A stretch of 64,000 nt of DNA from positions 87,368 through 151,367 of the forward strand of contig CAIJZI010000006.1 of assembly GCA_903825105.1 (NCBI GenBank). Direction: 5' to 3'. The DNA is from an uncultured bacterium (GTDB lineage: Bacteria; Patescibacteriota; Minisyncoccia; Phycocordibacterales; Phycocordibacteraceae). Every line of letters starts with the position of its first letter. The stretch's first letter is position 1. The position numbers were made by a program, and so were the translations under genes. The notes under the pieces were generated by a model that was given only the letters and a program-made list of their open reading frames with translations, was not told the origin of the DNA and made no database searches. Below are positions 4,205 to 44,574 of this stretch, piece after piece.

Positions 4205-5301
4205 AATTATTTTCTGGCGACCGCATATTCTTCGTGCTCGTGCTCGGGATGGTGTTCGCCGGGCTCGCCATATTTTCTTCTGCGGCGCTTGGGCTCCTCG
4301 CGCGACAAGGTGGTTCTGTATCACAAAACATTTTACTTCAAGCAGGTCTTGGACTGGGCCTTGGTTTTATATCGCTTTTTATAGCACGCGCGATACCACT
4401 TTCTTGGTTAAAAAAATACGCGCCGCATTTATTTATCGCAGCACTTATTTTTACTGCACTCGTTTTCGTCCCTGGAATTGGCTTCCACTCTGGAGGCGCG
4501 ACACGATGGATTAATCTTCATTTCACCACCGTTCAGCCATCAGAATTTCTGAAAATAGCTTTTGTGATTGTTCTCGCTTGGTGGATCGCGCCGCGTGCGC
4601 GCCAACTCGATAGCCCGAAAAAAGGATTATTACCTTTCGTCGCATTTCTTATCGCTCCAAGCGCGCTTCTCCTCGCACAGCCGAATACCTCAACAGCTTT
4701 CCTTATTATTGTCACTGGCGTGATGATGTACTTCGTCGCTGGCGCTCCGTGGCGCGACTTCGGGATTTTGATTCTCGTCGCTGCGCTTGCACTCTTTGTT
4801 ATTGTTTGGGCGCGGCCGTATGCCTTAGAGCGCGTAAAGACATTTTTTGATCCCTCTGCCAATGCTCTTAGCAGTGGCTATCAGATTCAACAGTCGCTCA
4901 TCGCTGTCGGCAGTGGAGGATTCCTTGGTAAAGGGCTCGGACAAAGCGTCGAGAAATTTAATTACCTTCCTGAACCCGACGGAGACTCGGTCTTCGCCGT
5001 ATTCGCTGAAGAGGCAGGATTTGTTGGCGCGCTCTTATTACTCGCGCTCTTTGTCGCGCTCTCGGCGCGCGGCATCGTTATCGCCGGCAACTCGCGCGAT
5101 CTCTTCGGCGGACTTATCGCATTTGGCTTTTCATTCATTATTATCCTTCAGGCATTTAGTAACATCGGCGCGATGCTCGGCATCATCCCGCTTACCGGTC
5201 TCCCACTCCCGTTTATCTCGCACGGTGGCACGGCGCTAATGGCGATGCTGATTATGTGCGGCTTTATCCTCAATGTCGCGGCGTATCGCAAAAGCGTTTA
5301 A
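4201..5301 (+). CDS. ftsW: SEDS-family peptidoglycan glycosyltransferase FtsW/RodA
   Basis: NYLPEPDGDSVFAVFAEEAGFVG block typical of FtsW/RodA; sits between mraY and murG. Confidence 0.85.
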   Translation: MKLFSGDRIFFVLVLGMVFAGLAIFSSAALGLLARQGGSVSQNILLQAGLGLGLGFISLFIARAIPLSWLKKYAPHLFIAALIFTALVFVPGIGFHSGGATRWINLHFTTVQPSEFLKIAFVIVLAWWIAPRARQLDSPKKGLLPFVAFLIAPSALLLAQPNTSTAFLIIVTGVMMYFVAGAPWRDFGILILVAALALFVIVWARPYALERVKTFFDPSANALSSGYQIQQSLIAVGSGGFLGKGLGQSVEKFNYLPEPDGDSVFAVFAEEAGFVGALLLLALFVALSARGIVIAGNSRDLFGGLIAFGFSFIIILQAFSNIGAMLGIIPLTGLPLPFISHGGTALMAMLIMCGFILNVAAYRKSV

Positions 5302-21282: not shown

Positions 21283-21293
21283 CCCAAATTCGA

Positions 21294-21323
21294 AGGCCGG
21301 CGCTTACGCGTCGGCCTTTTTGT
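21294..21323 (+). terminator. rho-independent terminator (copy A of a duplicated terminator sequence)
   Basis: aggccggcg-ctta-cgcgtcggcct then TTTTTGT; close copy at 22406..22437. Confidence 0.75.
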
Positions 21324-21708: not shown

Positions 21709-21731
21709 AGTGAGAGCCTAAAGCTCTCACT
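21709..21731. repeat. hairpin AGTGAGAGC-CTAAA-GCTCTCACT (copy 1), abutting the relE stop
   Basis: 9-bp stem; second copy at 22362..22392. Confidence 0.8.
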
Positions 21732-21740
21732 ACCCGCGTT

Positions 21741-21998
21741 TCATTTATAAGCATCTTTACGATGTCTGATTCTATAAACGATAATCATCTCCCCTTCAAA
21801 TTCAAAAAGCACACGATAGCTACCTAACCGCAGTCGGTATCCAGTAAATGGTGTTTGGACTTTTCTGACATGAAACTTGGGATCAAACGGATCGATGCAG
21901 AAATTCCCATTAAGTAATCCTCGAACTTTTTGTTGCACATCTCTCGGCAGATGTTTGTACTCTCGTTCAGCAGCAGAAGTGAGAGTTACGCGAGCCAT
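21741..21998 (-). CDS. type II toxin, RelE/ParE family
   Basis: 85 aa; YRLRLGSYRVLFEFEGEMIIVYRIRHRKDAY is a canonical RelE/ParE C-terminus; directly downstream of the antitoxin. Confidence 0.85.
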   Translation of the reverse strand: MARVTLTSAAEREYKHLPRDVQQKVRGLLNGNFCIDPFDPKFHVRKVQTPFTGYRLRLGSYRVLFEFEGEMIIVYRIRHRKDAYK

Positions 21999-22000
21999 TT

Positions 22001-22276
22001 TTAATGAACGCTATCTCGTACTTTTTCCCAAGGGATAAACTTCTTGCCTTTATTTTCTTTAATGAGCCGAGCGAGCGTACGCCCAGCTTGTTCGTCTTCC
22101 CAAAGTTCCATAAGCTCGTTATACGCATCGGCGCCAAGCACCACATAGCTCTCGCCGCCCTTTCGGTCAGAGATAATGAGCGGATGCTTCTTGGCTTTCG
22201 CGAGATTGCTCGCGAGCTCGGCTCTAAAACCGCTTATGCCGATTGTTTTAGGCACTTTTGTGAATATTGTATTCAT
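22001..22276 (-). CDS. type II antitoxin, Phd/YefM family
   Basis: 91 aa; Phd/YefM-like N-terminus; 2-nt gap to the toxin. Confidence 0.8.
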   Translation of the reverse strand: MNTIFTKVPKTIGISGFRAELASNLAKAKKHPLIISDRKGGESYVVLGADAYNELMELWEDEQAGRTLARLIKENKGKKFIPWEKVRDSVH

Positions 22277-22361: not shown

Positions 22362-22392
22362 AGTGAGAGCTTGAGAGCCTAAAGCTCTCACT
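22362..22392. repeat. hairpin AGTGAGAGC(TTGAGAGC)CTAAAGCTCTCACT (copy 2, with internal 8-nt duplication)
   Basis: Copy of 21709..21731. Confidence 0.8.
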
Positions 22393-22405
22393 ACCAAAAA
22401 GTAAA

Positions 22406-22437
22406 AAGCCGACGCTCGCGCGTCGGCCTTTTTGTTT
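22406..22437. terminator. rho-independent terminator (copy B of the duplicated terminator), bidirectional
   Basis: aagccgacgc-tcgc-gcgtcggcc then TTTTTGTTTT; A-run on the other side. Confidence 0.75.
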
Positions 22438-22445
22438 TGGGAAGG

Positions 22446-22688
22446 TCAGACCTTCCCATTTCCCGGCTTCTCTTCGGTGTTGACTACATATCGTGAAGGC
22501 TCCGGGAAACCCCCTCTAAATTCAACCGACAAAATGGCCATTCCCGTTACACTAAGATTGCCGTTGGTTGCTTTGAAGGCGGCCAATGCTTCAGGAAACA
22601 ACTGCGACACAAACTGTCCTTCGAATTGTTTCCGAAAAACAAAAACGCCGTGCCCCAAACCTTCAACTACAAGATGGCCATACTCCAT
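22446..22688 (-). CDS. hypothetical small protein
   Basis: 80-aa ORF; no motif recognised; weak. Confidence 0.3.
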   Translation of the reverse strand: MEYGHLVVEGLGHGVFVFRKQFEGQFVSQLFPEALAAFKATNGNLSVTGMAILSVEFRGGFPEPSRYVVNTEEKPGNGKV

Positions 22689-22696
22689 AAGATACC

Positions 22697-22802
22697 TCCT
22701 GTACCTCTGGCAATACTATATACTATCCTGCGACGGTTTGTCAAGCAGTTCCGGCTCGATGCCGATTTTAGAGTCGGCGATGCGGTACACATCTTTATCT
22801 AT
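22697..22802 (-). pseudogene. displaced, diverged duplicate of the rmuC 3' terminus (about 32 codons)
   Basis: Minus-strand translation QKELGKIDKDVYRIADSKIGIEPELLDKPSQDSI*, against the rmuC C-terminus HKELAKIDKDVYRITEEKVGVEPLLLEKPIIHEE*. Confidence 0.7.
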
Positions 22803-23158
22803 TTTCCCGAGTTCTTTTTGAGATATTCCTTAACTGGATCTGCAACAGTATTTTCGTTTATACCATTCTCTTTACAATATGATGATTTTTGAAGCCAATC
22901 CCACAATTTCTTTTTTCCTCTACTCGAGTTACAACTCCCGCAACATATTGCCAAATCTTCTTTTTCTAAACCAGTTCTTAAACCTTTTTCTGTCCAATAA
23001 AATGGCTTAACTTCCCTCAAGTGTTCAATTGTAGCTGAATGTTTTCTATTACTACTTTGCCAAGGATAAATCATTGGGTTGTTGCAATACACGCACTTCG
23101 TATCCCTATTTCTGATTTCTGCTTCAACATCTTCAGGAATACGAAATTTATTGGACAT
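22799..23158 (-). CDS. HNH endonuclease
   Basis: CVYCNNPM ... HSATIEHL ... CCGSCNSSRG (C-x2-C / H / C-x2-C-N HNH core); start taken at the internal ATG 23158 to avoid overlap. Confidence 0.7.
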   Translation of the reverse strand: MSNKFRIPEDVEAEIRNRDTKCVYCNNPMIYPWQSSNRKHSATIEHLREVKPFYWTEKGLRTGLEKEDLAICCGSCNSSRGKKKLWDWLQKSSYCKENGINENTVADPVKEYLKKNSGK

Positions 23159-23162
23159 AAAA

Positions 23163-23474
23163 TTATTTTTTATCTTCTGGTAATCTGCCTTCCTTCTCCA
23201 TTCGCTCATAAGTGTCTGCCTCGAGACAGCGATTTATTATATTGCTTATATGCCAGTATGAGTGTCCTTCGTAGTCATAATACATCTGCTTAGTTGTATA
23301 GAAATATGATTCGTAACCAAAAGTATCGATGTGATGCGCTAAAGCCAAAAATAATTCATTATCTACATTTTCCTGCACGATATATTCGTGTGGCCATGTC
23401 GTCTCATATGTTTTTGCAAAAATCCAGTTGCAATCTTTTATGAATTTCTTTAATTGTTCAGAGAGTTCGTTCAT
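23163..23474 (-). CDS. hypothetical protein in the HNH cassette, translationally coupled to rmuC
   Basis: 103 aa; the ATG lies 4 nt after the rmuC stop; family not recognised. Confidence 0.5.
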   Translation of the reverse strand: MNELSEQLKKFIKDCNWIFAKTYETTWPHEYIVQENVDNELFLALAHHIDTFGYESYFYTTKQMYYDYEGHSYWHISNIINRCLEADTYERMEKEGRLPEDKK

Positions 23475-23477
23475 TTA

Positions 23478-24521
23478 CTATTCTTCGTGAATAATCGGCT
23501 TTTCAAGCAAGAGAGGCTCAACCCCCACTTTTTCTTCTGTTATTCGATATACATCCTTATCTATTTTGGCGAGTTCTTTATGCCCGGCGTTAAAATGAGA
23601 CACAACCGTTCCAAGTGCGTTCCCTAATTTCAGATAAAAAGTATTGGTTGTTTCAATATGTTTAACAAGCTCTCCCACGCGCTTCTGAATTTCTTCGGCA
23701 CGCTCTTCGATCTTCATTGCGTTCAACCCAAGCAGAACGGTCTGAAGGTAGGCGAGGAATGAAGTTGGCGAAACGATGATCACTTTATATTTAGACGCAG
23801 CGCGTTGGAGCAGATTATCTTCTTCGGACGCGCCAACCTGATTCGTCAGCAGATCATAATAAATCCCTTCAGACGGGATAAACATAAAAGCGAAGTCCAT
23901 CGTCCCCTCTTCAGGGCGAATGTATTTCGCCGTTTCGGTGATGCGCATCTTAAGGTCATTCACAAAGGCTTTTTCAAATGCGGGCTTCTCGCTCTCGTCG
24001 GCGTGCACTAAGCGATTATAATTTTCAAGCGAAAACTTAGAATCAATCGGTACTATCTTATTATTTACAAAAACGACCGCGTCTACTATCTCGCCGTTCT
24101 TGAATGGGTATTGGATCTGATAACCGTCTGGAGGCAGAACATTCTTGAGTGTTGTTTCCAAATAATATTCACCGAGAATACCTCGTTGTTTTGGATTCTT
24201 CAGAATGTCTTGTAGACCCTTCAGTTGTTCAGCGAAGCCTTGTGTCTGCCGACCAATCTCTTTGACCGAAGTGACCTCTTGAGTAATCTCTTTAATCAGG
24301 CGATTCGATTCTGAAAATTGGCGATGCGTTGTCTCTTGCATCGTTCGCGACGACTCGGCGACGCGTGCGTCGAGCGTCCGAGTGAGCTCCTGCATCTGCT
24401 GTTGAAGCAAAAGAATTCCAGCATTATCTTCTTTTCCCTCTTTCGACAAATCGCGTTTTTGTAACAAAAAATACATAAGAACGACAACGGCGATAGCGAG
24501 AAGTATGACGGCAATATTCAT
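23478..24521 (-). CDS. rmuC: DNA recombination protein RmuC
   Basis: N-terminal TM, long coiled coil, C-terminal RmuC block (FAFMFIPSEGIYYDLL). Confidence 0.8.
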   Translation of the reverse strand: MNIAVILLAIAVVVLMYFLLQKRDLSKEGKEDNAGILLLQQQMQELTRTLDARVAESSRTMQETTHRQFSESNRLIKEITQEVTSVKEIGRQTQGFAEQLKGLQDILKNPKQRGILGEYYLETTLKNVLPPDGYQIQYPFKNGEIVDAVVFVNNKIVPIDSKFSLENYNRLVHADESEKPAFEKAFVNDLKMRITETAKYIRPEEGTMDFAFMFIPSEGIYYDLLTNQVGASEEDNLLQRAASKYKVIIVSPTSFLAYLQTVLLGLNAMKIEERAEEIQKRVGELVKHIETTNTFYLKLGNALGTVVSHFNAGHKELAKIDKDVYRITEEKVGVEPLLLEKPIIHEE

Positions 24522-28464: not shown

Positions 28465-30234
28465 TTATCTCGAATTTGTCGAGGTAGCTTGTGGTGAAGG
28501 ATCCAAGCGCGCGACGCCTCTGTCTGGCGGTACTGCATAATAATTGATTAAAAAGTGCACAAGGTCAAGAAATGTCGCGTCGAGCGTTTCTGAAGCGTAC
28601 TTCACCCCTTTTGGATCCTGGGTGTAGAGAAGAATGATGAAGCGCGGATTATATGATGGGAAAAATCCTATAAATGAATGGAAAAATTTATCATCATAGT
28701 ATCCACCTTGCCCATTGGTGAGCTGTGCCGTTCCGGTCTTCGCGGCTACCGACATCGTCTCGATCTTCGCCTTTCCGTCATAGAGCGGTCCGTCATCGAG
28801 CGCGTCCATCATCGTTATCGTTTCGCGTGTCGATGTCGCAGAAAAAACCTGCACTTTCTGACTCCACTCTAATTGCTTCGTAATGCCAGAATCGAGTCGT
28901 ATCGCACTCACCAAATGGGGCTGTACCATAAATCCACCATTCGCTATAGCCCCGAGTGCACGGATCATCTGCATCGGCGTTACCGCGATACCCTGCCCGA
29001 AAGACATATTGTCATAATAAACTTGCTCTGACTTCGAAAGGTTCCCGGTCATTCCACCACTCTCGCTCGGCAGATCAACGCCAGTCTTTTGGCCAAATAA
29101 TTTTGTAAAATAATCGTGGAATTTTTCTTGTCCCAACTGTGTGGCGACATAAGAAGCGCCAACATTGAGCGACTGCACAATGATCTGCTGCATGGGAATA
29201 ACACCACGAGCTTTATGATCCCAGTTACAGATTTTTGCCTTATTTACCACGAAACAGCCCGTGTCATTATAGGTCGTCTCTGGAGTAATCACGCCAGAAT
29301 CAAGCCCGGAGGTCATCGTGAGCGGCTTCATAATCGAACCGAATTCGTGAATCTGTTCTACCAGCGGGTTGCCAAGGAGCGACGGATCGGCATTCTTTAA
29401 ATCATTACCGTCATATGCCGGGTAGTTCGTGAGAGCGATAATCTCTCCAGTGTAGGGGTCCATTATGATACCGCCGGATTCTCTACTCGAATATTTTTGA
29501 TTTACCTTTGCGATATCATTTTCGAGTCTCGTCTGTACTTCAGGCTCAATAGTCGTCACAACATCGCCTTCTCGCGCATCACGCGCAGAGACGAGAAGAT
29601 TGCCTACATTAGAAAATAATTCTGCGAAGAAATTTTTATATAGAGAATCGCCCGAGCGCGAGAGCGCTTCATTATAGACATCTTCAATACCCGTTTGGCC
29701 GGTAAGGGTGTCGCCTGATCCGTACGAGACTATCCCTATCGATTGAGACGCGAGTGTCCCCCCAGGGTAATAGCGCCACCTTTCTTTCAATACTTGAATC
29801 CCTTTGATTTGTAACGCCGACAGAGATTTGCCTTCATCACTTGTTAAGTGGTGCGCGACTTCGATATATACCTGACTCTTTTTCCCTGCCGCTGTAATAA
29901 AAGCATCGTGACTAAGCGAGAGCGAAGATGACGCAATAGAATTTATCACCGAGAAAGCATCTTCTGGATTACCAAGTGTTTGTGGATTTATTGCGACAAG
30001 GAATCCGTCGGCGAGCGCTGCGGCTGAAATAAGCGTTCCGTCTTTTCGCGTAAAATAAATTGACCCTCGATCAAAAAGTCCGCTACTGCCCGAGGCAAAT
30101 TGTTGATCCGCTTTTTGTGAGTAGTCATCTCCATGCACAATCTGCACAAAATAAAGTCGCGCGACAATAAGTAACGACGCGAGAACGATACCAGCGAGAA
30201 TAATACGAATACGAATACGAAATTGTGCACGCAT
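28465..30234 (-). CDS. ftsI: penicillin-binding protein (transpeptidase), FtsI-like
   Basis: N-terminal TM, SxxK (GSIMKP), SxN, KTGTAQ; located downstream of ftsL. Confidence 0.85.
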   Translation of the reverse strand: MRAQFRIRIRIILAGIVLASLLIVARLYFVQIVHGDDYSQKADQQFASGSSGLFDRGSIYFTRKDGTLISAAALADGFLVAINPQTLGNPEDAFSVINSIASSSLSLSHDAFITAAGKKSQVYIEVAHHLTSDEGKSLSALQIKGIQVLKERWRYYPGGTLASQSIGIVSYGSGDTLTGQTGIEDVYNEALSRSGDSLYKNFFAELFSNVGNLLVSARDAREGDVVTTIEPEVQTRLENDIAKVNQKYSSRESGGIIMDPYTGEIIALTNYPAYDGNDLKNADPSLLGNPLVEQIHEFGSIMKPLTMTSGLDSGVITPETTYNDTGCFVVNKAKICNWDHKARGVIPMQQIIVQSLNVGASYVATQLGQEKFHDYFTKLFGQKTGVDLPSESGGMTGNLSKSEQVYYDNMSFGQGIAVTPMQMIRALGAIANGGFMVQPHLVSAIRLDSGITKQLEWSQKVQVFSATSTRETITMMDALDDGPLYDGKAKIETMSVAAKTGTAQLTNGQGGYYDDKFFHSFIGFFPSYNPRFIILLYTQDPKGVKYASETLDATFLDLVHFLINYYAVPPDRGVARLDPSPQATSTNSR

Positions 30235-35990: not shown

Positions 35991-37428
35991 TCGCGCTCGC
36001 GAGCGCTTCAGTCACGCCTCTTCGCATACCTTCGCGCACCACTTGAAGCATTGTGGGATTCACCGGCACAGTAGTATAAGAAGGCACTTGATCAGCGAGC
36101 ATTGTTGGCGTAAACAATTTTCCACCATTCGCGATTGCTGCTGTCGCGCGCGCCATCTGCACAGGTGTCACCTGCATCGAATATTGCCCGATAGCAGTAA
36201 AATAGGTATCGCCGAGATACCACTGTTCATTAAATGTTTTTCCTTTCCAATCGGGCGACGGCACGAGCCCTTTCATCTCTCCGGGTAAATCAATGCCAGT
36301 CGTGCTCCCCATCCCAAATTGTTGATACCAATAATCGAGCCGATCGATGCCGAGCCCTTTCTGATTTCCAAATCCGCCACCAACGGTATAAAAGAAAACA
36401 TCCGAGGACCAGGCTATAGCCCTTCGCACATCAACCGGCCCGAGCGCTCTCCATCCGTTATAAATAAATTTTTTCCCTGTGTGATACGGGTCTGGTATAG
36501 CGATCGATCCTGTATCGTTAATAACGGTATTTGGCGTGATAACACCGTCAGTGAGCGCTCCGGCTGAAACAAAGGGCTTCACGATTGATCCAGGAGTATA
36601 GATACCTTGAACCGCATGATCGAGAAAGGCGTTCCCCGGATTTTTATTATACGAAGCGATAACACTCGAGGGCGTACCATTACTCATCACATTTGGATCA
36701 AAAGAAGGATACGAGACAATCGCGCGCACTGCGCCGGTATTCACATCGATAATAACTCCAGCGCCAGCGATAAAATGTTTATTATTTACCGTACTCGAAA
36801 TCGCATCGGCAAATAATTCTTCTAGGCGCGAATCGATTGAGAGACGCACTGTCTTTCCGCTCTCTGCGGGGATAATCGTACCTTCTGAACGAACATTCCC
36901 GACCGCGTCAGTCTCCGTCAATAACTGTCCATTTTTACCCGACAGGAGCGCATCGTACTTCGCTTCGATACCGGCGACCCCTTTTTCTTCAGTTTCATAA
37001 TAAATTCCTTTTGAATCTTTTTTTGGATACGAGACATAGCCGATAATCTGCCCGAACGAAGGAATTGGATATTCGCGGCGCATCACGCCATCTTTATCCT
37101 CAACATTTTGTGCGAGAACTACACCGTTTATGTCAGTAATCACGCTCCGTGGTGCAAAAAGTGTCGCAACATCGAGACTATTGTGTGTGCTCTCTTCTGC
37201 AAAATAGTCACCATTTATAACCTGCAGATTCCACGAACGAACTATCAGAACGATAAAAAGCAGAGATAAAATGATGCTGATAGAAATAAATATGCTGCGC
37301 GGAAGGGGCTTCTCGATTCTTCCTTCAAACATCGCTCGATCGAAGTCTGGTGCGTTTGATGAGTCGAGAAATATCTCATCAGGAGCTATTTCAAAATCCT
37401 GCCGTGCCTTTCGCCTCTTCATCATCAA
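35758..37428 (-). CDS. mrdA: penicillin-binding protein 2 (elongasome transpeptidase)
   Basis: N-terminal TM, SxxK (GSIVKPF), KTGTAQ; immediately downstream of mreBCD. Confidence 0.85.
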   Translation of the reverse strand: MMMKRRKARQDFEIAPDEIFLDSSNAPDFDRAMFEGRIEKPLPRSIFISISIILSLLFIVLIVRSWNLQVINGDYFAEESTHNSLDVATLFAPRSVITDINGVVLAQNVEDKDGVMRREYPIPSFGQIIGYVSYPKKDSKGIYYETEEKGVAGIEAKYDALLSGKNGQLLTETDAVGNVRSEGTIIPAESGKTVRLSIDSRLEELFADAISSTVNNKHFIAGAGVIIDVNTGAVRAIVSYPSFDPNVMSNGTPSSVIASYNKNPGNAFLDHAVQGIYTPGSIVKPFVSAGALTDGVITPNTVINDTGSIAIPDPYHTGKKFIYNGWRALGPVDVRRAIAWSSDVFFYTVGGGFGNQKGLGIDRLDYWYQQFGMGSTTGIDLPGEMKGLVPSPDWKGKTFNEQWYLGDTYFTAIGQYSMQVTPVQMARATAAIANGGKLFTPTMLADQVPSYTTVPVNPTMLQVVREGMRRGVTEALASAINLPYVSVAAKTGTAQTGTHNQYDNSWVEGFFPYDKPQYAFAVVLERGPQGAGEQSVNVMQQLFDSLHAESSSYVGQ

Positions 37429-37676: not shown

Positions 37677-38500
37677 AAAGGAGTTGTTGTAGCGGAGATA
37701 GAGACTGGCACTCCAGCATCTCTTAAAAGTACCCATGTCGTAGAAAAAAGATTTACTGCGGGCACGATGTGTAGTTCTACAGCTGGCGATGAAGGATCAC
37801 TGTCGACACTACCGATGACGCCTATTGGCAAAGCCCCAGGACCTGAAACAAAAACAATGTCACCCACCGCGCTATTCGCAGAACGCGGCATTGTTGCTTT
37901 TATCGCACCAGCGCCAGCGCCGTATAAAGTGATGGGCAATTTTTTATTGCCAAACCACCCATTGGTAGCTGTCCGTGGCGAAGAAAAGAGCACCACACGC
38001 GAGAAGTTTTCTAAGACAGCAGAAACGACTCCGATAGGAGTGCCTTCTCCTCCAAAAGCTTCCATACCAACCTTCACCCCATCGTTACTACCGGCGGCGA
38101 GTACGAGAATATCGTACGGACTCTCTGGAGGACGCGCGACGACGCCAGCATATATCGCCGATGAACAAAAATCAGACTTGCAAGAAAGTCCAGAAATGTC
38201 AGCGACTTTCTGTATGAGTATCTGATTTTCATTCGCGAGTTCAGTGTTCTTTTGTATCAGAACTTCATTTTTTATCGTGAGCCGTTGTGCATTCCCAAAT
38301 CCTGATATAACAGAATGATATTCTTGTGCAATTGCATCGGAGGTATAAAAGACGGGAGAAAAAATATGCCAGAAAAAATTCGGGAAGAGTATGCGAATGA
38401 GACACAAAAAAATTGCCGCTATAAGCGCATACGCTCCGCACGAAAAGTGCTCTGCGGAAAAAAATATTTTATGCTTCGGTAAGTATGTCTTCTTCATCAA
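37673..38500 (-). CDS. mreC: rod shape-determining protein MreC
   Basis: N-terminal TM, coiled coil, beta-rich C-domain; sits between mreB and mreD. Confidence 0.75.
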   Translation of the reverse strand: MMKKTYLPKHKIFFSAEHFSCGAYALIAAIFLCLIRILFPNFFWHIFSPVFYTSDAIAQEYHSVISGFGNAQRLTIKNEVLIQKNTELANENQILIQKVADISGLSCKSDFCSSAIYAGVVARPPESPYDILVLAAGSNDGVKVGMEAFGGEGTPIGVVSAVLENFSRVVLFSSPRTATNGWFGNKKLPITLYGAGAGAIKATMPRSANSAVGDIVFVSGPGALPIGVIGSVDSDPSSPAVELHIVPAVNLFSTTWVLLRDAGVPVSISATTTPL

Positions 38501-39521
38501 TAAAGAAATCTTCGTACGGCGCCGGATCTTCGGTCACAATACCGGCTCCGCGTACAACAGCCGTGAGAGGGTCTGGCGTCACCTTCACCGGCACGCCGAG
38601 CATCTTCGCGAGCACTTGAGGAAGCCCGCGTAGAAGCGCCCCACCACCGAAAACGGTGACGCCGCGTTCGAGCACATCTGAAAGAAGTTCCGGCGGAGTC
38701 GCTTCAATCACCTCTTTCATCGCATCCATAAGCGTGTCGAGAGAGGGCGATATCGCTTCGCGTATATGTGCATCAGTGAGAAGCACTTCTCGCGGGAGTC
38801 CGGTCGCGAAGTCGCGCCCGCGCACCGTTCGAGAAAGTGTTTCTGAAAGTGGCGTCACCGCACCAATAGAAATTTTCACCTCTTCTGCCGTTCTCTCGCC
38901 TATCCCCAGTTTAAATTCGCTCCGAACAAAATCGATAATGTTTTCATTAAATCTGTCGCCCGCGACGGGCGAACTCTTTGAAGAAACGACTCCTTTAAGA
39001 GCGATAACGGCTATGTCAGTCGTGCCGCCACCAATGTCGAGCACCATTGTCCCCACGGCTTCTGACACCGGGAGCTTCGCACCGATCGCCCCAGCCACTG
39101 CCTCTTCGAGGATAATCGCTTCGCGCGCGCCCGCATTCCGCGCGGCGTCGCGCACTGCGCGGCTCTGTACATTCGTCACACCCGTCGGCACACCGATCAC
39201 CACACGCGAACCAAAGAATCGCATTCTCCCACTCTGTGCTTTATTTATAAAATAGGCGAGCAATTCTTCAGTCACTTCGAAGTCCGAGATAACACCGTGG
39301 GAGAGTGGGCGCACCACGCGAATGTGCGCTGGCGTTTTCCCCAACATCGCCTTAGCTTCTTTCCCGATCGCGACAATCTGATTGGTCTTGTCGTTTACTG
39401 CAACAACGGATGGCTCGGTGAGTACGACGCCGCGACCTTTTACATACACAAGCGTGTTCGTTGTCCCGAGGTCAATCGCGATGTCATTCCCGAAAAATAA
39501 ACTTTTTGAAAACTTCGCCAT
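38469..39521 (-). CDS. mreB: rod shape-determining protein MreB
   Basis: Actin-fold motifs (IDLGTTNTLVYV, DIGGGTTD). Confidence 0.95.
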   Translation of the reverse strand: MAKFSKSLFFGNDIAIDLGTTNTLVYVKGRGVVLTEPSVVAVNDKTNQIVAIGKEAKAMLGKTPAHIRVVRPLSHGVISDFEVTEELLAYFINKAQSGRMRFFGSRVVIGVPTGVTNVQSRAVRDAARNAGAREAIILEEAVAGAIGAKLPVSEAVGTMVLDIGGGTTDIAVIALKGVVSSKSSPVAGDRFNENIIDFVRSEFKLGIGERTAEEVKISIGAVTPLSETLSRTVRGRDFATGLPREVLLTDAHIREAISPSLDTLMDAMKEVIEATPPELLSDVLERGVTVFGGGALLRGLPQVLAKMLGVPVKVTPDPLTAVVRGAGIVTEDPAPYEDFFIDEEDILTEA

Positions 39522-42853: not shown

Positions 42854-43552
42854 CTATAGCAAATGCGACGGAATGACGAGTGAGAGATGTTCGAGAATCA
42901 TCTTTACCGGCGCGCTACGGTCGTAGAGATATGTGCGTAAAACAGCAATGTCAGAAAGAAGCGCTGCGGCTTCGCCGCCGCGCTTCTTGAATTTTTCATA
43001 CGCTACCATCTCAACACCATTTAAAATCGCGATCGCGTCATCGCGATGCTCGCGCCGTTCTTCTTCGTCATCACCACTCGCGAGCTTTTTAATCAGTGCA
43101 CTTCTTTTTTCTTTATTGGCTTTCAAAAATTCTTTGGAGCTTTCTGAAATGATGGATTTCGTAAACCCATCATTTGACTCTTTTACATTATTCAACACTT
43201 GCACGCGCGAACGCAAAGTTGGGAGAAGGCTACCAAGCGACGGCAATACCAGAAAAATATAAGTGTTTGGAGGTGGCTCTTCAAAAAGTTTTAAAAGCGC
43301 GTTTTGTGCTTCGTGATAAGCGCGACTCGCCGTGATGATGAGAGCTTTAGACTCTCCACTGAAGGGCGCGCTCGCCGCGATCTCGCAGACCTTCCGCGCA
43401 TCATCAACAGAAAAGAGTCCGTAGCGTAAAACAACAAGATCAGGATTGCTCATTTCTGCTTTCATCTTCAATTCCTTCTCCACCCACGCTCCCGCCACCT
43501 TAATTCCCTCCTCTGCCTCTGCTTCAATAACAAATGCGTGATGTAGTGTCAT
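42854..43552 (-). CDS. holB: DNA polymerase III delta' (clamp-loader) subunit-like
   Basis: KLFEEPP and LPTLRSR motifs of clamp-loader AAA+ subunits; no intact Walker A. Confidence 0.6.
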   Translation of the reverse strand: MTLHHAFVIEAEAEEGIKVAGAWVEKELKMKAEMSNPDLVVLRYGLFSVDDARKVCEIAASAPFSGESKALIITASRAYHEAQNALLKLFEEPPPNTYIFLVLPSLGSLLPTLRSRVQVLNNVKESNDGFTKSIISESSKEFLKANKEKRSALIKKLASGDDEEERREHRDDAIAILNGVEMVAYEKFKKRGGEAAALLSDIAVLRTYLYDRSAPVKMILEHLSLVIPSHLL

Positions 43553-44574
43553 TGCTTCGTTAAAATGCTTTTTTTGTAAGTATCCAAATGTTTGAGCGCG
43601 ATGCCGGTGCCGCGCGCGACACAGAAGTAGGGGTCGGTCGCTAGCTTCGCGATAACGCCTGTTCGGCGATAGACGAGCTCCGGCATTTGACGGAGCTGTG
43701 ACGAGCCGCCGGTTAGAATAATGCCATTGTCGATAATGTCGGCGGCGAGCTCGGGCGGGGTGTCCTGTAGCACCTTTCGTATCGCCTGCGTCATCTCGCG
43801 CAGTTCGCGGCTCATCGCCTGCACGATGTCGTTGGTCGAGAGGTCAACCGTGCGCGGCAGCCCGCTCATTAAGTCACGACCTTTTATCGGATACGAGATT
43901 TCTTCATTGAGCGGAACCGCGGCACCGATTTTTATTTTTATTTCTTCAGCTGTCTTGTCGCCGATCGCGAGATTGTGCTGCTTCTTCAAATGATCAACAA
44001 TCGCGTGGTCGAGCCTATCGCCCGCACACTTCACCGAGGTCGAGGCGACGATGCCGCCAAGAGAAATCACCGCGACATCGATCGTGCCGCCGCCGATGTC
44101 GACGACCATTCGCCCCATCGGTTCGTGAATCGGGATGCCCGCGCCAATCGCAGCGAGAATTGGCTCTTTAACCACATAGGCATTCTTCGCGCCGGCTTTG
44201 AGCGCCGCTTCGATCACTGCTCTCTTTTCTGTCGAAGTGACGCCAGCGGGTACAGAAATAAGAACGGTCGGCTTAAAAGGATTTCTGCCGAGCGCCTTAC
44301 GCATAAAATATTTCAACATCGCTTCAGTCACGCGATAATCAGCGATGACGCCGTCCTTCATTGGGCGATACGCGGCGATGTCATCGGGCGTTCTACCGAC
44401 CATCTGCTTCGCTTCAGCACCAATAGCGAGAATCTTATTACTCACACGCGAGTTCGCGGCTCGATTCACTGCGACAACTGACGGCTCATTTATCACCACA
44501 CCCTTCCCGGGCAAGAAAACAAGAATATTCGTCGTCCCTAAGTCAATCCCGAGTTTTGGAGAAAAGAAAGACAT
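43549..44574 (-). CDS. MreB/Mbl-family actin-like protein (second paralog)
   Basis: KLGIDLGTTNILVF, DIGGGTIDVAV; start taken at MSFFSPK. Confidence 0.85.
   Translation of the reverse strand: MSFFSPKLGIDLGTTNILVFLPGKGVVINEPSVVAVNRAANSRVSNKILAIGAEAKQMVGRTPDDIAAYRPMKDGVIADYRVTEAMLKYFMRKALGRNPFKPTVLISVPAGVTSTEKRAVIEAALKAGAKNAYVVKEPILAAIGAGIPIHEPMGRMVVDIGGGTIDVAVISLGGIVASTSVKCAGDRLDHAIVDHLKKQHNLAIGDKTAEEIKIKIGAAVPLNEEISYPIKGRDLMSGLPRTVDLSTNDIVQAMSRELREMTQAIRKVLQDTPPELAADIIDNGIILTGGSSQLRQMPELVYRRTGVIAKLATDPYFCVARGTGIALKHLDTYKKSILTKQ

Follow-up and report, generated by a model that had tools for sequence, protein, structure and literature searches.

A detached second rmuC gene end behind an ORF103-HNH gene pair in a Patescibacteria chromosome

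We analysed a 64-kb stretch of DNA (the window, to whose positions all coordinates refer) from an uncultured bacterium of the Patescibacteria (contig CAIJZI010000006.1, positions 87,368 to 151,367), in which the gene rmuC is followed by two small genes and then by a second copy of its own 3' end. The rmuC gene lies at 23478..24521 on the minus strand, as do the other features of the locus. It is intact and encodes a protein of 347 amino acids (aa), which scored 171.8 bits with the RmuC profile PF02646 at a cut-off of 26 (E = 2.3e-50, residues 42-319). Its last 105 nucleotides (nt), 23478..23582, encode the attached terminus, HKELAKIDKDVYRITEEKVGVEPLLLEKPIIHEE (tail1). Three nt past the stop codon sits the ATG of an open reading frame of 103 codons (ORF103, 23163..23474), and 4 nt past the stop of ORF103 begins the gene of a 119-aa protein, a predicted HNH-fold nuclease (22799..23158). 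The final 22 nt of the HNH gene, stop codon included, overlap in a different frame with the detached terminus, (Q)KELGKIDKDVYRIADSKIGIEPELLDKPSQDSI (tail2, 22716..22820). This has an intact frame but no start codon and repeats the last 35 codons of rmuC (QKELGKIDKDVYRIADSKIGIEPELLDKPSQDSI) up to a stop codon TAG at 22716-22718.

Ungapped alignment of tail1 with tail2 gave 66 identical nt out of 105 (63%) and 20 identical aa out of 34. The next-best 105-nt window on both strands of the 64 kb reached 49 of 105, the background having a mean of 26.6 and a standard deviation of 4.8, and against 20,000 shuffles the tails scored z = 8.5 for nucleotides and z = 9.3 for the BLOSUM62 score. Identity at the three codon positions was 24, 28 and 14 of 35, i.e. 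differences were mostly found at third positions. Thus, we concluded that tail1 and tail2 diverged as coding sequence. Twelve codons were identical, 9 carried synonymous changes and 14 were replacements, four of which scored above 0 in BLOSUM62. A preliminary description of this DNA had postulated two diverged copies of the same gene end, 60-70% identical in nt, with a 103-aa ORF and a 119-aa HNH protein with a CxxC..H..CxxC core between them; all of this was borne out by the data, the motif reading CxxC..EH..CxxCN. The detached copy is real as well, but its coordinates had been given as 22697..22800, about 20 nt off, and that segment aligned at 30%. The statement that the differences were mostly synonymous or conservative turned out to be about half right, as it applies to 13 of the 23 differing codons.

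The joins of rmuC, ORF103 and the HNH gene were reproduced at 100% identity by three contigs, which stem from at least two separate assemblies. Two of them (L001, L003; loci and RmuC relatives used for comparison carry our L and P numbers) also cover the junction between the HNH gene and tail2 and the entire tail2, while the third (L002) stops at 22816, a few nt into this junction. Because L001 and L003 reproduce both junctions and both tails at 100%, the structure is not an assembly artefact.

The close relatives of RmuC comprise two allele types, which differ over the last ~85 codons: an H type (HKELAK..GVEP.LLEKP) in 31 of 120 relatives and a Y type (YKELGK..IGIEPELLDKP) in 89. Tail1 is of the H type and tail2 of the Y type. 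Tail2 was 90.6% identical in nt to the terminus of L157, which encodes P0245, including the variable final residues SQDS[VI], and 27-28 of 29 aa were shared with many Y-type relatives. The best relative of tail1 was L155 with 77%; tail1 has a GC (guanine plus cytosine) content of 0.38 and contains a weak promoter-like site (9/12) ahead of ORF103. Two candidate signs of import were rejected. The GC of tail1 is not decisive, as H-type tails are poorer in GC than the gene bodies even in the cassette-free L155, and the H-type terminus as a footprint of a cassette was unsupported, because the H-type loci L075-L077 and L155 are without the ORF103-HNH pair.

Ancestry changes along rmuC itself. In nt 1-263 of the gene 61 informative sites agreed with L157 and 28 with L155, whereas in the rest of the gene the numbers were 55 and 105. 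The corresponding ratios of L157 to L155 were 8:16 in tail1 and 25:2 in tail2. A maximum chi-square analysis placed the breakpoint near 24258 (Fisher p = 3e-7 for a breakpoint chosen post hoc). In line with this, residues 291-313 had a mean identity of 80% to H-type and 59% to Y-type relatives, and P0245 was the best match to tail2 and the second for residues 41-100 among the 30 relatives listed. The rmuC of the window therefore reads as a mosaic of the Y lineage (nt ~1-263) and the H lineage (remainder). A 5' part that shares its ancestry with tail2 and a middle part of another ancestry are as expected for a Y-type resident that received an H-type segment together with the pair. Thus tail2 probably is the displaced old end of the resident gene, which agrees with the preliminary description of the fragment as the displaced original terminus. 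Hybrid rmuC tails also occur in some relatives, e.g. P0248, P0251 and P0289. Furthermore, residues 101-260 of P0241 and P0242 have 98-100% identity to the window, from which both differ past residue ~290; recombination breakpoints are evident in these near-identical genes.

At the right junction the homology of the HNH gene to L008 stops at 22817, and the homology of the rmuC tail to L157 begins at 22817. The site is part of a heptamer, AAAGAAC (22811..22817, minus strand), which both the HNH gene at its natural end (..EYLKKN) and rmuC at codons 315-317 contain. The HNH gene ends with GAA TAT CTC AAA AAG AAC followed by TCG GGA AAA TAG, while tail2 starts with (TAT) AAA GAA CTC GG. The natural ends of the HNH proteins in L171 and L010 are EYLKKNK and EYLKRNEK, and the last three codons and the stop of the gene in the window come from tail2 read in the other frame. 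As both homologies meet inside the heptamer, the join lies within AAAGAAC. On this alignment the right junction is an illegitimate one of the microhomology type (7 nt).

The segment that is common to other genomes in blastn comparisons, i.e. the part that travels, is confined to 22817..23475 (minus strand), from the base before the ATG of ORF103 (23475) to the 3' end of the HNH gene (22817). Its identity in nt was 80% with L008 (1937-2600), 76-77% with L004 (4000-4618) and 71.5% with L172. The block starts at the ATG of ORF103 in L004, L008, L010, L167, L171 and L172, and the attached H-type terminus is never inside it. The three closest rmuC homologs are 81-88% identical over residues 1-313, and their neighbourhood is conserved: they share with the window the order yqeY, rmuC, small variable genes, rplU and DEAD helicase. 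In the closest rmuC relatives, L155-L158, ORF103, the HNH gene and a second tail are absent. The pair was also found in none of 80 metagenomic rmuC loci (the best 80 of >590 matches), and none of these had a second tail, except for extra tails in L104 and L110. The GC content of the pair is 0.35 compared with 0.45-0.48 around it. Judged by these comparisons, the pair is an insertion relative to the nearest relatives.

The contexts of the pair in other genomes are diverse. It stands directly behind an rmuC ~24% identical to that of the window in L008 and L172 and behind one 42% identical in L167 and L171. In L010 it follows a gene for 396 aa in the position of rmuC; that this protein is an RmuC could not be shown (hhalign probability 2%). 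In L004 the pair lies upstream of a standard, Y-type rmuC. At least three very different types of rmuC, 23-42% identical to that of the window, thus occur beside the pair, and its presence is polymorphic among relatives at the rmuC locus, as is expected of homing endonucleases. Because of the varied types of rmuC and the upstream position in L004, a single DNA target cannot explain the positions of the pair, and the variety of settings speaks for linkage to rmuC and against sequence-specific targeting of its end. The pair is linked to rmuC as a co-transferred neighbour, probably an operon partner; the order rmuC-ORF103-HNH recurs in several Patescibacteria. With respect to the preliminary description, the empty sites it called for do exist in L155-L158 and the 80 metagenomic loci. 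Yet its mobile element that targets the end of rmuC and brings its own terminus is not supported, since the block consists of ORF103 and the HNH gene only and the H-type terminus is an ordinary allele. Repeated cassettes of HNH plus partner at other gene ends, which it proposed to look for, are lacking in the window, where we found no other ORF103, HNH gene or duplicate of a gene end. A search of PADLOC defence systems gave no match for ORF103, a weak match to PtuB for the HNH protein and the generic RmuC-domain model for RmuC; the trio matched none of the systems. RmuC-domain proteins do occur in phage defence (Shield; PMC10952713). A literature search on RmuC with HNH in Patescibacteria found nothing relevant.

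Detached Y-type tails were present in four other loci, L008, L167, L104 and L110. The first tail of L008 is fused in frame to the HNH end, following an internal deletion (..KEYLKQ joined to RAEQLLDKPVTSDE), and the second is located farther downstream at the end of the contig. L167 has a detached Y tail behind rmuC, ORF103 and the HNH gene, while its sister contig L171 carries the same three genes without a tail. Two extra tails in L104 and one 5'-truncated tail in L110 complete the set. All seven detached tails, that of the window included, belong to the Y allele type. Six of their seven junctions fall at codons 313-315, ~6 nt apart at most. The sequences upstream of the junctions differ: the HNH end, three types of hairpin and a 60-nt repeat. 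Of 5 loci that carry the pair and extend far enough downstream, 3 had a detached tail behind it, compared with 2 of 84 loci without the pair (p ~8.5e-4, hypergeometric, the sampling not being independent). Self-comparison of L004, L008 and L009 by blastn and tblastx revealed no flanking duplicates at E<=1e-2; the tail fragments of L008 were detected only by peptide queries and by eye. There was no recombinase or transposase among the ORFs and Pfam matches at 20-27 kb, and a degenerate pattern of the tail, used as a test for attP, had 0 matches in viral contigs.

Two of the compared loci showed further peculiarities. In L104 (4847-5811) three rmuC tails follow each other in series, one attached and two detached, all with intact frames; between them lie a 260-nt spacer and a unit whose 70-aa ORF encodes a predicted membrane or secreted protein, and a 60-nt repeat plus hairpin precedes each detached tail. 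At ~4880-4912, exactly at rmuC codon 314, L085 contains a stretch of N together with a short local repeat (..GGCTACAAAGAGCNNGGCTAC AAAGAGC..). This may be an artefact of masking or scaffolding, or it may reflect heterogeneity of the population at the same hotspot.

Behind tail2 lies a small gene, ORF80 (22446..22688, minus strand), at a position equivalent to that of the 86-aa gene after rmuC in L157 (2037-2294), to which it is 33% identical in aa. It had no match in family profile libraries. Within tail2 we noted a promoter-like site of the sigma-70 type directed toward ORF80, TTGACA-18-TATAGT (22715..22744, minus strand), a near-consensus sequence match (11/12), the -35 box of which coincides with the LLDKP codons. 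Every detached tail has a gene behind it and a promoter-like site within. Tail2 may thus have been kept because it holds the promoter-like site of ORF80. The ORF80 unit is closed by a hairpin resembling an intrinsic terminator, AAAAGGCCGACGCGCGAGCGTCGGCTTTTT (22403..22432, minus strand). The same hairpin ends several small genes of the variable region between rmuC and rplU; it was seen again at 21293-21321, in L157 at 2296-2329 and 2656-2696 and in L171 at ~1440-1470, and its conservation is 83-94% in genomes that share only ~75% identity with the window in their coding DNA. Another hairpin, AGTGAGAGCTTTAGGCTCTCA, at 22372-22392 and 21711-21731, forms a direct repeat on both sides of a Phd-ParE toxin-antitoxin pair (22001-22276, 21741-21998) and recurs at 43337-43357; it had four matches in the window with 0.01 expected. 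A like hairpin with a 60-nt repeat ahead of it is found on both sides of Phd-ParE in L087 (2955-3040, 3673-3745), and in L104 and L167 the 60-nt repeat and hairpin stand immediately before the detached rmuC tails. Hairpins of this type and the 60-nt repeats look like boundaries of small mobile cassettes.

The 119-aa protein carries the motif CxxC..EH..CCxxCN. It has >180 homologs. E45, H46, C72, C73, C76 and N77 were invariant in 32 that were aligned, the first cysteine pair, C22/C25, was kept in at least 90% of these, and the invariant positions comprise E-H, C-C-x2-C-N-S-S-R and W residues. The Pfam HNH profile (PF01844) gave 10.8 bits at a cut-off of 21.4 (E = 0.59), and there were weak matches to PHROG HNH families (E 2e-4) and to PtuB of PADLOC (E 3e-4). 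The AlphaFold2 model had a pLDDT of 90.8. In a Foldseek search of the PDB the top matches were all HNH domains of Cas9 (probability 1.0, E 4e-3, TM 0.5), followed by Gme HNH, McrA and Cap5. Because of the PHROG matches, the conserved residues and the likeness of the model to the Cas9 HNH domain, the protein is, by prediction, an HNH-fold nuclease. Outside the trio, the closest HNH homologs are encoded beside a PDDEXK_1 nuclease and a Dnd-associated protein (L160 879-1983) and beside DUF1653 and NYN genes (L161 801-1133). These surroundings are defence-island-like or mobile.

ORF103 belongs to a conserved, previously unannotated family with the motif WIFAKTYAxTWPHEYIVQ, to which this locus draws attention. 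Identity was 60-83% among the matches listed (119 homologs). No match was obtained with Pfam, PHROG, NCBIfam and PADLOC models and no convincing relative among solved structures. The wider family has 1491 cluster representatives from many phyla and a few viral contigs. Outside this group of Patescibacteria, ORF103 adjoins an HNH gene in just 4 of 65 genome loci; elsewhere it adjoins or is fused to proteins of ~350 aa with PD-(D/E)XK-like motifs. A conserved ~350-aa protein with a nuclease-like motif D..E.K and without a Pfam match is encoded behind it in 14 loci and one viral contig (L162 4352-5374), and in L055 ORF103 is fused to a PD-(D/E)XK-like region. Fusions to HD domains of the RelA/SpoT type occur in L037 and L059 (Pfam HD_4, E down to 6.5e-19). 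Judged by sequence similarity, L065 and L069 are near-identical in this region. RmuC itself belongs to a nuclease family of the PD-(D/E)XK type. Since ORF103 is found beside or fused to PD-(D/E)XK-like proteins, it is likely a partner of nucleases of this type.

How might this arrangement have come about? The setting would be a hypervariable spot between rmuC and rplU. We suppose a resident state like that of L157, with a Y-lineage rmuC followed by ORF80, and incoming DNA from a relative in which an H-lineage rmuC was followed by ORF103 and the HNH gene. In one recombination event the left crossover would have been homologous, inside rmuC at ~nt 263, and the right end would have been joined illegitimately via AAAGAAC, linking the end of the HNH gene to codon 315 of the resident rmuC. 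As a result, ~780 nt of rmuC would have been converted to the donor allele, two genes would have been added, and the last 34 codons of the resident would remain as a detached, non-translated scar. This account is the one we favour, with our judgement evenly balanced between its being right and wrong; the direction of the event, its being a single one and the role of the promoter-like site are what we infer. Several observations weigh against it. The breakpoint test was post hoc and rests on three reference genomes, each only ~75% identical to the window. The closest whole-gene relative, P0241 of L155, has an H-type end without the pair, so the H-type end of the window could be vertical. L104 and L110 have detached tails and no HNH gene. 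The clustering of the junctions makes chance microhomology a poor explanation and hints at an unspecified site-specific step. Finally, in L010 the HNH gene is directly followed by Phd-ParE, and together with the tail-less L171 this means that a unit of tail plus gene could have entered behind an existing rmuC-ORF103-HNH.

The last point leads to the main rival, which we consider rather unlikely: a Y-type tail was captured with its promoter, ORF80 and terminator behind a pre-existing rmuC(H)-ORF103-HNH, so that tail2 is foreign. It accommodates the tail of L167 and its lack in L171, the HNH gene of L010 abutting the same Phd promoter region that follows the ORF80 unit in the window, the arrays of tail plus small gene without HNH in L104 and L110, and the gene and promoter-like site that go with each detached tail. 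But it does not predict that tail2 and the first 263 nt of rmuC share L157/P0245 as their best relative. Moreover, with ORF80 33% and tail2 90.6% identical to L157, tail and gene do not form a single block of recent transfer. The preliminary description came closest to another rival, a discrete homing mini-cassette of ~760 bp made up of terminus, ORF103 and HNH gene and site-specific at codon 314 in the manner of the mORFs discussed below. Its architecture would be identical to that of the carboxy-terminal duplications of mORFs, with near-equal identities (90.6%, 63%), tail1 falls within the low-GC stretch, and detached-tail junctions cluster at codons 313-315 in several loci. Yet the block starts at the ATG of ORF103 in six other contexts and never includes an H-type terminus, the donor-type tract extends over ~780 nt and not 105, the pair stands behind rmuC genes 23-42% identical with unrelated 3' ends or, in L004, upstream of rmuC, and H-type termini are common without the pair. 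We consider this cassette quite unlikely.

The same clustering (6/7 junctions within ~6 nt in spite of different upstream sequences) would suit an array of site-specific cassettes, with codon 314 as the attachment site, a recombinase or transposase encoded elsewhere and each insertion displacing the prior terminus; some cassettes would be bounded by hairpins and one would contain ORF103-HNH. In L008, L104 and L167 a hairpin is immediately adjacent to the tail, and the Phd-ParE cassette is bordered by hairpin repeats both in the window and in L087. The junction in the window is without a hairpin, however, no recombinase or transposase gene was found in or beside the locus and no phage or viral contig with the tail sequence as attP, and the repeats consist of diverged coding sequence (80-105 nt) instead of a short identical core. 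An array of this kind is very unlikely in our view. An old tandem duplication in situ with subsequent divergence has a precedent in L104, where the attached tail and the third tail match each other better than any other full-length tail (90%). In the window identity is 63% between the two tails and 90.6% between tail2 and the functional terminus of another genome, the frame of tail2 is intact, and the intervening DNA is compositionally foreign and absent in relatives; a chimeric assembly is contradicted by the separately assembled contigs with 100% identity across both junctions. Duplication or chimera is hardly credible on these grounds. Still less credible are silent cassettes for variation of the RmuC C-terminus, similar to pilS, for which the arrays of L104 are the only evidence.

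An active part of the nuclease can be joined to the favoured history of one recombination event. The HNH protein would have cut the resident allele near codon 314 and triggered its repair, a drive of the rmuC-ORF103-HNH module that resembles intronless homing. This putative addition, which fits because the scars are fixed in position and of the Y type, is plausible but less likely than not, and L004 with the pair next to a Y-type rmuC argues against its simple version. A more far-reaching form is unlikely: here rmuC-ORF103-HNH would be a selfish module whose nuclease cuts Y-type rmuC at codons 313-315, repair would install the resistant variant and leave Y tails as scars, the process would drive the diversity of rmuC in Patescibacteria, and the codon would be a hotspot at which several kinds of small cassettes are stacked, each displacing the previous gene end.

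The anatomy of the locus resembles that of known systems to a different extent. Carboxy-terminal duplications by mORFs are described for atp6 of Allomyces macrogynus and for atp6, atp9, cox2 and nad3 of Glomus sp. (PMC3630166); in the atp6 mORF of Glomus the native copy is 91.2% identical to a relative, and the duplicates are 63.5% identical to each other (PMC3630166). As with mORFs, an endonuclease gene, whose role here is predicted, separates a functional C-terminus of foreign origin from the displaced native one, the native copy is ~91% identical to a relative and the copies ~63% to each other, and the gene is uninterrupted in relatives. In contrast to mORFs the host is a bacterial chromosome and not an organelle, and the nuclease is of the HNH and not of the LAGLIDADG or GIY-YIG type. 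It is encoded by a separate gene that is not in frame with the host gene and is preceded by a second conserved gene, ORF103, which looks like an obligatory partner. The imported tract of the gene measures ~780 nt, and in other genomes the nuclease gene is not accompanied by that terminus.

In intronless homing, free-standing homing endonucleases of T4-like phages are encoded by seg and mob genes, e.g. mobE (PMC2988022; see also PMC2790892). The locus has in common with it a free-standing HNH gene beside a possible target gene, the variable presence among relatives and possibly the co-conversion of flanking host sequence to the donor allele, which could be resistant to cleavage. The mosaic rmuC with its breakpoint at ~nt 263 fits co-conversion, but the same mosaic would be expected from ordinary allelic recombination. 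Homing, on the other hand, needs homology on both sides and creates no duplication, whereas here the right junction is illegitimate and accompanied by a 105-nt duplicate; it also takes place during co-infection of phages and not in a cellular genome. Like genomic islands inserted by integrases at the 3' ends of genes, the locus has a duplicated gene end with the newer copy attached and the older one displaced, and tandem tails occur in L104. Unlike such islands it has no integrase gene and no short identical core between unrelated arms, and the insert comprises 660 bp. A last parallel is homology-facilitated illegitimate recombination, a concept that de Vries and Wackernagel reportedly derived from transformation experiments in 2002. 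One homologous crossover in a conserved gene, a 7-nt microhomology at the other end and foreign genes beside the anchor would correspond to it, but here the process is deduced from sequence alone, and the junctions recur more often than random microhomology predicts.

Fungal mitochondria and T4-like phages are the textbook settings for the odd replacement of a gene end beside a nuclease gene. Here an ultra-small bacterium shows a gene-end anatomy like that of mORFs in its chromosome, and several uncultured relatives have it at the same codon. Should the HNH protein be the driving force, selfish nucleases would be remodelling a conserved recombination gene in genomes regarded as streamlined and as containing little mobile DNA; Y and H would then be a natural pair of putatively cut and immune alleles, for which the cleavage site is predicted. 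If ordinary recombination was at work, the locus would be a clean natural case of homology-anchored illegitimate recombination at the border of an island.

The window contains two further pairs of diverged sequences, which have no bearing on the rmuC locus. Judged by sequence, they look MreB/actin-like and penicillin-binding/transpeptidase-like. The paralogs at 38490-39497 and 43552-44568 and those at 28900-29470 and 36100-36760 had identities of roughly 42-58% and 42-54% aa, respectively, in tblastx segments.

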